Assembly: GCF_000008305.1 (NCBI RefSeq) | Contig: NC_006055.1 | Coordinates: forward strand, 570,001-602,000 | Source of the DNA: Mesoplasma florum L1 | Lineage (GTDB): Bacteria; Bacillota_I; Bacilli_A; Mycoplasmatales; Mycoplasmataceae | Direction of reading: 5' to 3' | Length of the DNA stretch: 32,000 nt | Shown here: positions 6,530 to 26,839 of the stretch, piece by piece | How positions within the stretch are numbered: position 1 is the first letter of the stretch | Layout: every line of letters starts with the position of its first letter | Translations under genes and position numbers: made by a program | The notes under the pieces: model-generated | Seen by the model: the letters and a program-made list of their open reading frames with translations, nothing else | What the model was told of the DNA's origin: nothing | The model's database searches: none

Positions 6530-6580
6530 TTTAAACTCCTTGTAAATATAAACTATTATTAATTTTACTATTTTTAAAAA

Positions 6581-6613
6581 ATAAAAAAAGTAATAATCAA
6601 ATGATTATTACTT
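6581..6613 (-). terminator. rho-independent terminator after tRNA-Ile
   Basis: Perfect 12-bp inverted repeat AAGTAATAATCA/TGATTATTACTT (6588-6613), followed on the minus strand by TTTTTTTATTTTTT. Confidence 0.7.
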
Positions 6614-6624
6614 GTGATATCTAA

Positions 6625-6701
6625 TGGTCGGAATAATTGGACTTGAACCAACGACCTCTCCGTTATCAGCGGAGTGCTCTAACCAGCTGAGCTATATTCC
6701 G
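6625..6701 (-). tRNA. tRNA-Ile (anticodon GAT), CCA encoded
   Basis: rc = CGGAATATAGCTCAGCTGGTTAGAGCACTCCGCTGATAACGGAGAGGTCGTTGGTTCAAGTCCAATTATTCCGACCA. Cloverleaf folds by hand. Anticodon loop is CTGATAA. Confidence 0.95.
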
Positions 6702-6709
6702 AAAACAAA

Positions 6710-6741
6710 AATATTGTATTATTTTTACAATATTAAGTCAA
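6710..6741 (-). promoter_or_regulatory. candidate sigma-70-type promoter for tRNA-Ile, overlapping the hairpin that probably terminates the upstream orphan gene
   Basis: Minus strand reads TTGACT (6736-6741), a 17-nt spacer, TACAAT (6713-6718), then 11 nt to tRNA position 1. The same bases form the hairpin AATATTGTA/TACAATATT (6710-6734), which is followed by TTTTGTTTT. Confidence 0.45.
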
Positions 6742-6774
6742 TAGAAAAACATTAAATTTATATTTTTATTAAAT

Positions 6775-8544
6775 TTATATTTCTTCTTCATATGCTGGAC
6801 TATATAAAAATAATTCTTTGTTATAAGTTTTTAATACATTTTCTGTGTCCACAAAAAGAAATTTTGAATAAAAAGATTCAGTATTTCATTTCAATGGTGC
6901 AGTAACAAATGCAGCAACATATTTTGCATTTCTAATTTTTTTAAAAAAATCTTCTTTGCTTATATTTTCCGGTATCCTATTTTTTTCAAAAAGCTTATCA
7001 TAATAGTCATAAATAACATTTTGCGCACTATGAATTAAATTAGCTGATGTTTCTATTTGATTAAATAAGTCTCTAGACCCAATTCCAGTAGGACTTGCTT
7101 TATTACAAATCAGATAAGTTTGATCATTATCTGCAAAAACTATTAAATCACATATTTCAACATTTTTAATAGTTATTCTATCAGCCAATATAATATCCTT
7201 GTTATCTTTTTTTGATAAAAAAGAATCATTATATTTTTTTTCATTAATTCTATGACTTTTGTTTTTAAACAATTTTTTTGCTTTATAAACATCTTCTAAT
7301 TCTTTTTTGCTTTTTTCATTCAATTTTTTAAAAGATAATTTTATATGTTCATCATAGGTTTGATCTAAAATATATCACTTTCCACCGTTTAAATATATTT
7401 CTCCTTCTTGGGTAATATAAATGTAATCAATAATATTTTTCAATTTCTGTTTTTTAATTTCCTTATTTTCCTCATCGAATATTGTTATTTCTCAATTCAT
7501 AAAAAAATTTCTAATTTTATTTTTTGAAAATGAAACATCCCTATTAGGTGCTTTTTCAAAATTAAATTTAACAAAATCACTGTAAATATTTTCAAATGTT
7601 GGAATTACATCATATTCCTTTCTAAATTTACCATCTCTAGATTCAATAATCCATTTAGCAGCATTAAAATAGTCAGCATAATCAGACCATGTTATAGTTA
7701 TTTCTTTTTTATCAATTGTTTCAAAAATTTCATAAAATTCATCAAAGTATTTTTCATTTAAGCCATTTTCTGCAAATTCACTTACAGGTTTCCAATATGA
7801 TAATCAAAGTTTAGGTTCTTTTTTAGAAATACTAGAAATACTAGAAATATATTTTTTAAATTCTTGCGGCGAAACTGATTTTTTTATTTCAAAAAAATCA
7901 GCTGCATTTATTTTGTTTTTAGAAAATTCATCTTCGCTTGTTCCCTCATCAATAATTCCTAACTCTTTTGATACATTGAAAGTTGTTTCCAAATCTAAAT
8001 TTTTGATGTTATTTGAAAATTGAATTTCACTTGTTATTGTTGAATTACTTCTATTATAGTTTGTAGATTGTATTCTTTTTCCTCTTATCGGTTTTTCAAC
8101 AAATTTTTGTAAAACAGGTTCAGTTCCATCATATAGTCTTGTTATAATTTCTTTTCCAAAATCTTTAACAATGAACTCACTTATATAGTTACTTGCATGA
8201 CCACCTGTTGATGCATAAAGCTCATTTTCATATGCAATTAAGAAAATAAATGATACAGATGTGTTAACTAAATTATCAAAATGTTGATCTTTAAAAAAAT
8301 TAGATAAACCACTCATCCATGATATTTCCGCATCTTTTATGTAGACAAGAGCAGCAATATTTTCATCATCAGATTCTTCATTATATATTCAAAAATTATT
8401 TTCAACCAAACTATTTTTATCAATTATATATTGAAAAATTAAGTCTTTAATGATTGATAGATTCATTTCTTCATTATGTCTTTGTAATTCATTTTCTCAT
8501 ATTTTTTTTGTATCTAATTTGTATATTCTAAAACTTTGATTCAT
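6775..8544 (-). CDS. orphan 589-aa protein with a C-terminal PD-(D/E)xK-like nuclease motif; resembles the TIGR04141/DUF6119 'sporadically distributed' family (candidate defence protein)
   Basis: ATG 8542-8544 preceded by AAAGGAGAC, TAA 6775-6777, 1770 nt. I translated codon by codon across 6775-8544 and the only in-frame stops are 6 TGA. This joins ORFs 6886-7323 and 7804-8316. C-terminal segment is ILADRITIKNVEICDLIVFADNDQTYLICNKASPTGIGSRDLFNQIETSANLI. CDS call is confident, function is not. Confidence 0.8.
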
Positions 8545-8587
8545 TTGTCTCCTTTAAAATCTCTATATAATTTTAATATATTCATAA

Positions 8588-8611
8588 TAAAAAAAGACAG
8601 CATTTGCCATC
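8588..8611 (-). terminator. rho-independent terminator after rpsI
   Basis: Minus-strand GAUGGC-AAAU-GCUGUC hairpin (two G.U pairs) followed by TTTTTTTATT. Confidence 0.5.
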
Positions 8612-8641
8612 TTTTAAATATATATTGCTGAAAATATATGA

Positions 8642-9037
8642 TTAACGTTTTGAGTATTGAGGTGCTCTACGTGCTCCACGAAGACCGTATTTTTTACGTT
8701 CTTTAATACGTGCATCACGTGTTAGTAACCCAACAGCTCTTAACCCTTTACGGTAATCTTCACTAGCTACTAATAATGCTCTAGCAATCCCTAAACGAGT
8801 TGCTCCAGCTTGACCAGTAAACCCTCCGCCTTTAACTGTAACAGTGATATCAAAATCTTTTTCTGTTCCAGTTGCTACAAGTGGTTGTTCTAAGTCTTGA
8901 ACTAATGTTGGATATGGGAAGAATTCTAATGCAGGAACACCATTAACAATGATGTTTCCTTTTCCAGGAGTTAAGATAACTTGAGCTACAGAAGTTTTTC
9001 TTCTTCCAGTTCCTCTATAAATAACTTTTTCTGCCAT
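8642..9037 (-). CDS. rpsI: 30S ribosomal protein S9
   Basis: 131-aa ORF ending ...[17 protein letters not shown], the canonical S9 C-terminus. Its ATG overlaps the rplM stop (TAATG). Confidence 0.97.
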
Positions 9038-25785: not shown

Positions 25786-25861
25786 TGGTGGTTGTGGACG
25801 GAATTGAACCGCCGACACGCAGAGCTTCAATCTGCTGCTCTACCAACTGAGCTACACAACC
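25786..25861 (-). tRNA. tRNA-Phe (GAA)
   Basis: rc = GGTTGTGTAGCTCAGTTGGTAGAGCAGCAGATTGAAGCTCTGCGTGTCGGCGGTTCAATTCCGTCCACAACCACCA. Anticodon loop is TTGAAGC. Confidence 0.95.
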
Positions 25862-25863
25862 GA

Positions 25864-25940
25864 TGGCGACCCCAACGGGACTCGAACCCGTGATCTCCTC
25901 CGTGACAGGGAGGCGCGATAACCAACTTCGCTATGGGGCC
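25864..25940 (-). tRNA. tRNA-Asp (GTC)
   Basis: rc = GGCCCCATAGCGAAGTTGGTTATCGCGCCTCCCTGTCACGGAGGAGATCACGGGTTCGAGTCCCGTTGGGGTCGCCA. Anticodon loop is CTGTCAC. Confidence 0.95.
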
Positions 25941-25947
25941 ATTAAAA

Positions 25948-26023
<76 letters not shown>

Positions 26024-26033
26024 ATAAAAAAAA

Positions 26034-26126
26034 TGGCGGAAGATGAGGGATTCGAACCCCCGCTCGGGTTTCCCCGACTCTCGGTTTTCAAGACCGATCC
26101 CTTCAGCCGGACTTGGGTAATCTTCC
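26034..26126 (-). tRNA. tRNA-Ser (TGA), long variable arm
   Basis: rc = GGAAGATTACCCAAGTCCGGCTGAAGGGATCGGTCTTGAAAACCGAGAGTCGGGGAAACCCGAGCGGGGGTTCGAATCCCTCATCTTCCGCCA. Confidence 0.93.
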
Positions 26127-26164
26127 GTGTAATATTCAAGTTGCAACCATATTTTATTAACTAT

Positions 26165-26241
26165 TGGTGGACCTTATTGGACTTGAACCAATGACCGTCC
26201 GGTTATGAGCCGGATGCTCTAACCAACTGAGCTAAAGGTCC
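26165..26241 (-). tRNA. tRNA with CAT anticodon, probably tRNA-Ile2 (lysidine-modified CAU)
   Basis: rc = GGACCTTTAGCTCAGTTGGTTAGAGCATCCGGCTCATAACCGGACGGTCATTGGTTCAAGTCCAATAAGGTCCACCA. The GGACCTTTAGCTCAG 5' end and the position in the conserved Met-Ile-Ser order point to Ile2. A Met assignment cannot be excluded from sequence alone. Confidence 0.8.
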
Positions 26242-26249
26242 TTTAATTA

Positions 26250-26326
26250 TGGTAGCGGGGGCGAGATTTGAACTCGCGACCTTTCGGGTATGAACCGAAC
26301 GCTCTAACCAACTGAGCTACCCCGCC
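26250..26326 (-). tRNA. elongator tRNA-Met (CAT)
   Basis: rc = GGCGGGGTAGCTCAGTTGGTTAGAGCGTTCGGTTCATACCCGAAAGGTCGCGAGTTCAAATCTCGCCCCCGCTACCA. Confidence 0.88.
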
Positions 26327-26335
26327 GTAAAAAAA

Positions 26336-26411
26336 TGGTGGACCCTATCGGGATCGAACCGACGACCCCCTGCGTGCAAGGCAGGTGCTCTCCCAGCTGA
26401 GCTAAGGGCCC
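26336..26411 (-). tRNA. tRNA-Ala (TGC)
   Basis: rc = GGGCCCTTAGCTCAGCTGGGAGAGCACCTGCCTTGCACGCAGGGGGTCGTCGGTTCGATCCCGATAGGGTCCACCA. The G3:U70 identity pair is present. Confidence 0.95.
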
Positions 26412-26424
26412 ACAAAAAATATAA

Positions 26425-26501
26425 TGGTCGGGAAGACAGGATTCGAACCTGCGACCCTTCGGTCCCAAACCGAATGCTCTACCAAGCTGAGCCACTTCCC
26501 G
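26425..26501 (-). tRNA. tRNA-Pro (TGG)
   Basis: rc = CGGGAAGTGGCTCAGCTTGGTAGAGCATTCGGTTTGGGACCGAAGGGTCGCAGGTTCGAATCCTGTCTTCCCGACCA. Confidence 0.95.
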
Positions 26502-26548
26502 ATACGACAATGTTATTACTTTTTCAATAATAACATTAATAATTTAAT

Positions 26549-26625
26549 TGGTGCGCCCGGAGGGACTCGAACCCCCAACCTTTTGATCCGTAGTCAAACG
26601 ATCTATCCAATTGATCTACGGGCGC
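26549..26625 (-). tRNA. tRNA-Arg (ACG)
   Basis: rc = GCGCCCGTAGATCAATTGGATAGATCGTTTGACTACGGATCAAAAGGTTGGGGGTTCGAGTCCCTCCGGGCGCACCA. Confidence 0.95.
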
Positions 26626-26668
26626 ATTTGTTATTATTGGTACACCTTAAAATTTAAGGGACTTTTTT

Positions 26669-26697
26669 ATTATAAATAAGTTTTACTAAAAAAACAA
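26669..26697 (-). promoter_or_regulatory. candidate promoter of the nine-tRNA operon
   Basis: Minus strand has TTGTTT (26692-26697), 17 nt, TATAAT (26669-26674), about 43 nt upstream of tRNA-Arg. The palindrome CCTTAAA-A-TTTAAGG (26645-26659) lies in the leader. Confidence 0.4.
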
Positions 26698-26724
26698 TAG
26701 ATTTTTTACAAATTTAAATTTTGT

Positions 26725-26754
26725 AAAAAAAACCATTCAGATCCCTGAATGGTT
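26725..26754 (-). terminator. rho-independent terminator after tRNA-Cys
   Basis: Perfect 10-bp stem AACCATTCAG-ATCC-CTGAATGGTT (26731-26754), followed on the minus strand by TTTTTTTT. A second AT-only hairpin lies at 26702-26730. Confidence 0.75.
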
Positions 26755-26764
26755 GGTATTTTAT

Positions 26765-26839
26765 TGGAGGCGGCAATCGGATTCGAACCGATGATCAGGG
26801 TGTTGCAGACCCATGCCTTAGCCACTTGGCTATGCCGCC
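26765..26839 (-). tRNA. tRNA-Cys (GCA)
   Basis: rc = GGCGGCATAGCCAAGTGGCTAAGGCATGGGTCTGCAACACCCTGATCATCGGTTCGAATCCGATTGCCGCCTCCA. Anticodon loop is CTGCAAC. Confidence 0.92.

Follow-up and report, generated by a model that had tools for sequence, protein, structure and literature searches.

We analysed a window of 32,000 nucleotides from Mesoplasma florum L1 (NCBI RefSeq assembly GCF_000008305.1, contig NC_006055.1, positions 570,001 to 602,000), and focus here on one gene in it, mfl491, whose product is a candidate DNA-sensing nuclease of the DUF6119/TIGR04141 family. Positions are those of the window unless stated otherwise. The gene lies on the minus strand at 6775-8544 (genome coordinates 576775-578544). 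An earlier reading of the letters alone, referred to below as the original prediction, had pieced together an open reading frame of 1770 nt in genetic code 4 at this place. The frame is real: translated with table 4 it runs uninterrupted for 589 aa and ends in TAA, and translation with table 11 yields seven stops, that is, six in-frame TGA codons and the terminator. From the composition of the window and strand, the chance of meeting 589 codons devoid of TAA and TAG is about 5e-20. All the peptides that had been quoted could be located in the translation, including IILADRITIKNVEICDLIVFADNDQTYLICNKASPTGIGSRDLFNQIETSANLI (residues 451-503, nt about 7036-7194) and STGGHASNY (residues 112-120); FRIYKL occupies residues 5-10. 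The G+C content of mfl491 is 23.4% (27.6% for the window), and six of its ten Trp codons are TGA, the other four being TGG, which fits the host. The host-like composition and the use of TGA for Trp imply that the gene has long resided in a code-4 lineage, or derives from one. The protein is 100% identical to a database entry called 'unknown protein [Mesoplasma florum L1]', and its UniRef name is 'Sporadically distributed protein, TIGR04141 family'.

mfl491 is a real, expressed gene. A ribosome-binding site, AAAGGAG, is found 4 nt 5′ of the ATG (8549-8555, minus strand), and a dedicated transcription start site (TSS) was mapped at genome position 578562-578563, with a -10 element at genome 578569-578575 (Matteau et al. 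2020). Checked against the sequence, this promoter (8563-8575, minus strand) consists of the -10 hexamer TAAAAT at 8570-8575 and a start at the G in position 8563. The same study validated 10 unique peptides, gives a mean expression of about 636 fragments per kilobase per million mapped reads, and puts the protein at an estimated 103 molecules per cell, a level near those of DnaA and GyrA. Upstream, our terminator scan found an intrinsic terminator at 8592-8615 (minus strand), which is the terminator of transcription unit TU_277 in Matteau et al. 2020 and closes the rplM-rpsI unit; mfl491 is hence isolated from the ribosomal-protein operon. Directly downstream lies the gene for tRNA-Ile(GAT) (6625-6701, minus strand; identified with ARAGORN and Rfam), which has its own -10 element, TACAAT, at about 6713-6718 (promoter scan, transcription-unit and TSS tables) and its own TSS at about 6706. 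The mfl491 transcript also continues through this tRNA gene in TU_276 (6574-8563, minus strand; Matteau et al. 2020), so that an accessory gene shares a transcript with a tRNA gene. On the plus strand, an antisense TSS (genome 578577/8, -10 TATAAT) stands back-to-back with the mfl491 promoter and is directed into rpsI.

At this locus mfl491 is a strain-specific accessory gene, present in L1 only of 13 M. florum strains. Baby et al. 2018 classify it as non-core among these strains, non-essential and absent from JCVI-syn3.0. In their ortholog table leuS and rpsI have consecutive gene numbers in 9 of the 13 strains, where the slot is empty, and are separated by one gene in L1 (mfl491) and by two other genes in W12, W20 and W37, annotated as 'hypothetical protein' and 'DNA helicase' (families 5323 and 5324). 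This pair could be a different defence-type cassette. The variable slot, which we derived from the published tables, corresponds to positions 6702-8641, from tRNA-Ile to rpsI (8642-9037). A transposon insertion at genome position 577001 falls inside the C-terminal domain of the protein. These data speak against a universally conserved, syntenic core gene, the alternative that the original prediction had set against its own reading. Searches for direct or inverted repeats flanking mfl491 returned AT-rich chance matches only. The best of them is a 21-nt inverted pair, 81% complementary and AT-rich (6746-6766 and 8631-8651), that brackets the insert almost exactly; it is probably due to chance, and is the sole candidate boundary feature. 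Scans with an alignment of the closest relatives (one genome per species, and metagenomes) confirmed nothing, although its motifs match mfl491 exactly, which suggests that the genome representing M. florum in that collection is without mfl491. Among the other species representatives, none had a close relative carrying these motifs.

By sequence, mfl491 is a member of the DUF6119/TIGR04141 family, the one that the original prediction had named. Both hidden Markov models (HMMs) exceed their curated cut-offs: Pfam PF19614/DUF6119 matches residues 58-569 with an E-value (E) of 6.2e-22 and 78.4 bits (cut-off 27), spanning profile positions 35-509 of 524, and TIGR04141 matches with E 2.3e-18 and 66 bits (cut-off 35). 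The assignment is already in public annotation. Contrary to the label of orphan that had been given to the protein, a profile search run exhaustively over 1.84 billion cluster representatives recovered 781 relatives with E<=1e-3, of which 198 reach E<=1e-30, counted as clusters at 50% identity. This exhaustive search was needed because word-indexed searches with the single sequence or with 3- and 44-sequence profiles gave 3 proteins each, having probably been swamped by low-complexity AT-rich words. Among the 150 matches listed, most full-length relatives are 560-640 aa long and align in a single block. The family is therefore real, rare and uniform in architecture, and it turns up patchily in Bacteroidota, Patescibacteria, Planctomycetota, Bacillota and others. 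mfl491 displays all of its hallmarks, that is, a near full-length HMM match, the length, the architecture, the invariant residues and a sporadic accessory distribution. It is nonetheless an outlier: its best matches, four proteins encoded in low-GC assemblies in which TGA is not read as a sense codon, are 30-34% identical to it. No functional work on DUF6119 or TIGR04141 was found in the literature. The one paper that came up for DUF6119 deals with plant MADS-box genes, and of two that mention TIGR04141 a phytoplasma preprint describes the family as 'commonly associated to mobilomes'.

Conservation was counted in an alignment of 134 family sequences, whose members are 17-34% identical to mfl491. 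Four residues are invariant (E463, D466, K482 and R491), three are conserved at 99% (E435, Q496 and G115), two at 98% (W76 and W390) and one at 97% (G130). Conserved positions in the N-terminal part comprise I7, Y8, W76, a T113-G114-G115-x-G/A117 loop, F129-G130, G155, R165, K222 and W390. W76, G115, G130, W390, E435, E463, D466, K482, R491 and Q496 are all found in mfl491, which lacks none of the residues that are invariant in the family. Two positions alternate. Position 455 (nt about 7180-7182) is D in 80 sequences, H in 53 and N in 1, and position 480 (nt about 7105-7107) is H in 108 and C in 24 of the 134, with Cys in mfl491. Asp, His and Cys are all able to bind metal ions, and the sequence pattern of D/H at 455 with H/C at 480 hints at an unusual metal site instead of the classical carboxylate pair. 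The catalytic set originally proposed (D455, E463, D466 and K482) is thus retained for the last three residues, which are invariant, but not for D455, which varies between D and H. Likewise, the SxxLFxQ motif that had been noted after this block keeps its conserved L493 and Q496, to which R491 has to be added, but S490 is not conserved. We also considered the 'HVK' tripeptide as part of a phospholipase-D signature (HxK...D) and rejected it: the His is replaced by Cys in 24 of the 134 sequences, mfl491 included, and the downstream spacing is unfit.

The conserved block falls in a domain that can be modelled confidently. With a 44-sequence alignment, AlphaFold2 gave a full-length model with a predicted local distance difference test score (pLDDT) of 89.1 and a predicted template modelling score (pTM) of 0.73, and a model of the C-terminal part (residues 392-589) with a pLDDT of 93.6 and a pTM of 0.91. 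In both, DSSP assigns a long helix to residues 395-422, within a connecting segment (residues about 395-429; 7258-7362, minus strand) that separates an N-terminal module (residues 1-394; 7363-8544, minus strand) from a C-terminal domain (residues about 430-589; 6778-7257, minus strand). The latter contains the putative active-site block, residues 435-496 (7057-7242, minus strand), delimited by the column counts of the 134-sequence alignment. Its DSSP elements begin with a helix at 435-440 that carries E435, followed by a strand at 451-453 with D/H455 just after it, a small hairpin at 458-463 carrying E463, a strand at 467-470 immediately preceded by D466, a strand at 476-482 with H/C480-x-K482, a long helix at 487-506 that bears R491 and Q496, a strand at 541-546, a helix at 558-572 and a last strand at 578-580/581. 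The order of elements along the chain in both models, alpha-beta-beta-beta-alpha-beta, fits that of PD-(D/E)xK nucleases. D466 opens the second strand and K482 ends the third one 16 residues on; an Asp at the start of strand 2 and a Lys at the end of strand 3 with this spacing are typical of PD-(D/E)xK enzymes. Furthermore, PD-(D/E)xK nucleases make up 9 of the 30 top Foldseek matches of the C-terminal model in the Protein Data Bank (PDB), namely CdiA-CT, Card1, Hef, Can2, SfsA and XPF, and Card1, NucS and SfsA recur among the weak matches of the full-length model. Motif conservation, secondary-structure order and the excess of weak nuclease matches together make it likely that the C-terminal domain adopts a PD-(D/E)xK nuclease fold, presumably metal-dependent. 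The first position of the (D/E)xK motif varies within the superfamily, and the invariant E463 may substitute for it here. Of the PD-(D/E)xK layout proposed at the outset, the conserved acidic/Lys block stands and the predicted order of elements fits, but no significant structural or profile match accompanies them.

The N-terminal region had been described as matching nothing recognisable. Its predicted structure resembles RdgC, a likeness that sequence and profile comparisons do not show. Foldseek aligned the full-length model to E. coli RdgC (PDB 2owl) with a probability of 0.87 and E 0.015. In a library of viral structures, 6 of the 7 top matches were phage RdgC or 'recombination-associated' proteins (probability 0.85-1.00, E 6e-4 to 1.6e-3), and at least seven RdgC-type phage proteins were matched overall, at probabilities of 0.63-1.00. 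RdgC was absent from the matches of the C-terminal-only model, so that the similarity lies in residues about 1-390. A strand motif at the N terminus, hydrophobic-Tyr-Lys/Arg-hydrophobic, reads FRIYKL in mfl491 and VYRL, IYRL or LYKL in RdgC proteins. On the strength of these models we lean towards an RdgC-like fold for residues about 1-390, with somewhat less assurance than for the nuclease-like domain. RdgC binds duplex DNA non-specifically as ring-shaped dimers and modulates recombination and replication restart, and its fold is shared by RexA of phage lambda, which acts as the sensor in the Rex exclusion system (PMC11077077).

The genomic surroundings of relatives were examined in two subfamilies. 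For subfamily 1, scanning one genome per species with motifs recovered 59 loci, mostly from Bacteroidota, with a few from Patescibacteria, Planctomycetota, Aminicenantes, Desulfosporosinus, SAR324 and others. We clustered five genes on each side for 50 Bacteroidota-rich loci and found no neighbour family shared between them, except among four Sediminibacterium genomes that are close relatives; the intergenic gaps are mostly wider than 100 nt. The lack of a shared neighbour and the wide gaps show that the DUF6119 gene has no obligate partner, as expected from the single-gene organisation that had been proposed. Scanned with Pfam and PADLOC, the 135 neighbours include Type IIG enzymes, Type I methylase and specificity subunits, AAA_21 (AbiEii-like) and AAA_15 proteins, M78 peptidases, BrxC, integrases and serine recombinases, RmuC being one further neighbour. 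Subfamily 2, to which mfl491 belongs, comprises 34 metagenomic loci, mostly from human gut, with neighbours such as KAP NTPase, HD-CE, ParB_N, C5 and D12 methylases, GmrSD, nSTAND3, HNH, two restriction endonucleases and IS21. The mobile or defence contexts that the original prediction had named for the family are seen among the relatives, in the form of restriction-modification, KAP, GmrSD, STAND, BrxC and recombinase genes.

Some loci show tighter arrangements. In loci L008 and L009, from a Patescibacteria metagenome-assembled genome and an unclassified bacterial one, the DUF6119 gene begins only 4 nt after a complete Type IIG restriction-methyltransferase of ~1240 aa on the same strand (L008 6253-9975 and L009 844-4590; PADLOC E 4e-255), and the two genes may form one operon. 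In L004 and L005, two independent metagenome contigs, a gap of 165 nt separates the DUF6119 gene (P0010) from an upstream 461-aa N6_N4 DNA methyltransferase (L004 2230-3615 and L005 1125-2510), itself preceded by an unannotated 286-aa gene. In subfamily 2, a KAP-family P-loop NTPase of ~464 aa follows the DUF6119 stop by 61 nt in L071, L072, L073, L076, L081, L092 and L095 (it is truncated to 311 aa in L072). A protein of ~1055 aa is the second gene downstream in L071, L076, L092 and L095, and HD-CE was detected in four neighbours. These seven KAP loci look like related islands, and may represent a conserved three-gene island or a subfamily-specific system.

Relatives were not recovered from mobile elements as such: tblastn with mfl491 and a central family member found none in 72,556 PLSDB plasmids or 50,697 INPHARED phage records, and scanning IMG/VR with two subfamily alignments found none in 2.9 million viral contigs. 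The picture is that of a chromosomal gene, seemingly of defence or mobilome islands, that is uncatalogued as a defence component.

The interpretation that we prefer, and to which we give slightly less than an even chance, is that mfl491 encodes a stand-alone DNA-sensing nuclease of the defence/mobilome type; from the models and contexts above we infer both folds, the activity, the sensing and the role. The RdgC/RexA-like N-terminal module would load on, sense or encircle DNA, following RdgC in forming a dimeric ring or horseshoe around the duplex, and the PD-(D/E)xK-like domain fused to it through the long helix would cut the bound DNA. The active site would be built from E435 on the first helix, D466 at the start of the second core strand and H/C480-x-K482 on the third, with E463, D/H455, R491 and Q496 nearby. 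About 100 copies per cell are tolerated, and no methyltransferase, immunity gene or partner is adjacent, which argues for an intrinsic discrimination: self-DNA would be spared through a property such as DNA modification, structure, an end or an invader-derived trigger. The target would be incoming DNA, be it phage, plasmid or integrative element. A bolder and rather doubtful version takes DUF6119 as a one-polypeptide immune system, in which a RexA/RdgC-type clamp would sense abnormal or invading DNA and license the fused nuclease-like domain. Triggers would be replication or recombination intermediates, ends or modified DNA, and the protein would amount to a Rex-like sensor carrying its own effector. 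What the original prediction had called a single-gene defence nuclease is hence upheld as regards the accessory, stand-alone nature of the gene and the defence-type contexts of its relatives, but the nuclease fold is unproven and PADLOC offers no match. We regard the defence role as that of a candidate, credible but unproven.

Several observations weigh against this interpretation. Some concern the nuclease domain: the family has His or Cys in place of the acidic residue of (D/E)xK, the Foldseek search of the C-terminal model against the PDB gave no significant match (best E 0.14, probability <=0.44), and Pfam families of the PDDEXK clan did not match any of 44 C-terminal domains at E<=10. mfl491 has no relatives in the PDB by sequence or profile search, and it is off-consensus at well-conserved N-terminal positions (K215 to A, S217 to F). 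The link to RdgC is structural only, with low TM-scores (0.23-0.43 against the target), as would be expected if the sub-domains hinge differently. The Pfam RdgC model did not match 44 family members at E<=10, and in hhalign comparisons the probability was 0.3% for E. coli RdgC and no higher for an alignment of 12 RdgC sequences from phage records. As for the role, neighbour content is a raw listing, uncorrected for a genomic background, and the immediate neighbours of mfl491 itself are housekeeping genes. PHROG models gave no meaningful match with 44 family members. PADLOC-DB 2.0, which the original prediction had put forward as a check, matched mfl491 with 0 families at E<=1 and 44 relatives with two isolated chance-level matches only; mfl491 is outside every catalogued defence system. 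Finally, we know of no described phage of M. florum.

Several of the results above can be accommodated by other explanations. RdgC being a modulator of recombination and replication restart (PMC11077077), mfl491 could be an accessory repair or recombination factor, in which an RdgC-like modulator is joined to a structure-specific nuclease (cf. NucS, RecU, RmuC) acting on the host chromosome rather than on foreign DNA, at stalled forks, mismatches or recombination intermediates. The weak structural matches do include enzymes of repair (NucS, Hef, XPF and SfsA), expression is constitutive and near the level of DnaA and GyrA, and RmuC neighbours one related locus. Such factors are, however, normally conserved throughout a species, whereas mfl491 is non-core and was found at this locus in one of 13 strains; the family is very rare and patchy across phyla, and its neighbours are mainly restriction, Abi-like, STAND and recombinase genes rather than repair operons. 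We therefore deem a repair function unlikely. mfl491 could also be a selfish or element-maintenance gene (homing-like or addiction-like), its nuclease favouring the spread or retention of the gene itself, or cargo left over from a degraded integrative element, without any defence benefit to the host. mfl491 is a single gene inserted beside a tRNA gene in a conserved housekeeping stretch, other strains hold alternative cargo in the same slot, and contexts differ wholly between species and often contain integrases, serine recombinases or IS21. Yet no recombinase adjoins mfl491, repeats around it do not go beyond AT-rich chance, the scans gave a single locus per record and no hint of multi-copy spread within a genome, and no relative was seen on phages, plasmids or the 2.9 million viral contigs with the queries used. 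The gene has, moreover, kept its conserved residues and yields both transcript and protein. This origin also seems improbable to us.

A modification-dependent, Type IV-like restriction enzyme would be a sub-case of the DNA-sensing nuclease, the N-terminal module reading modified DNA or a foreign pattern. The gene is solitary, a cognate methyltransferase being absent from the window and from most loci of relatives, the host tolerates its constitutive expression, and relatives co-locate with GmrSD-type Type IV enzymes and with complete restriction-modification systems. Pfam and PADLOC scans revealed no likeness to modification readers (SRA, YTH/EVE, McrB-N, DUF3578 and others), however, and RdgC-type scaffolds bind DNA non-specifically, and we give this sub-case little weight. 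Lastly, the statistically unestablished nuclease fold and the missing canonical acidic residue of (D/E)xK, together with the annotation of E. coli RdgC as a nucleoid-associated protein, would be accounted for if the protein were not an enzyme at all, its C-terminal residues binding a regulatory metal or ligand in a nucleoid-associated or regulatory DNA-binding protein. Against this, the strands and helices where PD-(D/E)xK active sites lie carry a cluster of six charged or polar residues, four of them invariant and two conserved at 99%, and such conservation among sequences 17-34% identical to mfl491 is typical of catalysis, which makes a non-enzymatic function quite improbable. Two further candidates were considered. 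A Type II restriction subunit does not fit a gene that lacks a cognate methylase and is flanked by rpsI and tRNA-Ile/leuS, in a family whose loci mostly have no methylase; where a methylase is adjacent, as in L008 and L009, it belongs to a complete Type IIG enzyme that already has a nuclease. A transposase or homing nuclease is unlikely, each record having one locus and no terminal repeats.

Elsewhere in the window, the Rfam scan found nothing besides tRNAs. Ten of them (Phe, Asp, Met, Ser, Met, Met, Ala, Pro, Arg and Cys) form a cluster at 25786-26839 on the minus strand, which explains a local rise in G+C to about 34%.

If DUF6119 proteins are DNA-sensing nucleases, they represent a new domain combination among single-gene defence or DNA-surveillance enzymes, and a family that databases call only 'sporadically distributed' gains a function. 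In the literature that we searched, we found neither the predicted architecture of an RdgC/RexA-like scaffold joined to a variant restriction-endonuclease-like domain nor a systematic defence-island context for DUF6119. The M. florum copy offers a handy entry point, in a near-minimal model with genetic tools and genome-wide expression, proteome and transposon data. The cell can do without mfl491, which it expresses constitutively, and the sister strains that lack the gene serve as natural controls; were the one-polypeptide immune system to be true, it could be dissected in L1 with few confounding systems. The slot from rpsI to tRNA-Ile, with its alternative cargo, further suggests that even near-minimal genomes keep exchangeable defence-type loci, which bears on genome-minimisation designs and on the efficiency with which foreign DNA can be introduced into M. 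florum chassis.

Compared with known systems, mfl491 is closest to its own family: it is like other DUF6119/TIGR04141 proteins in its full-length HMM match, its ~590 aa, its single architecture and its invariant residues, and differs from the norm in lying on a highly divergent branch of low G+C (nothing found exceeds 34% identity), in having Cys at 480 where His is usual, and in being non-consensus at K215 and S217. RexA exemplifies the same type of scaffold serving phage exclusion, the likeness in fold being predicted for mfl491. RdgC and RexA are, however, proteins of about 280-300 aa with no enzymatic domain, whereas in mfl491 a nuclease-like domain would follow the scaffold in the same chain; RexA has the membrane protein RexB as its partner and mfl491 has no partner gene; and there is no detectable sequence or profile similarity between them, with low TM-scores. 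With solitary Type IV and Type IIG-like restriction enzymes, DUF6119 shares the single large gene, the lack of a fixed partner and the occurrence beside restriction-modification, GmrSD, BREX and Abi-type genes, but mfl491 has no methyltransferase domain, no modification-reader domain, no NTPase motor and no restriction match in PADLOC. Card1/Can2, NucS/EndoMS and CdiA-CT, the best weak matches of its C-terminal domain (none significant, E at least 0.14), combine a sensing or DNA-binding N terminus with a C-terminal restriction-endonuclease-like domain, and the same order is predicted for mfl491. Unlike Card1/Can2, mfl491 has no CARF domain and no CRISPR context, and where these fusions have D...(D/E)xK its motif is D...(H/C)xK with conserved E463, R491 and Q496. 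Judging from the models, it is probably such PD-(D/E)xK sensor-nuclease fusions that mfl491 resembles in its working mode.

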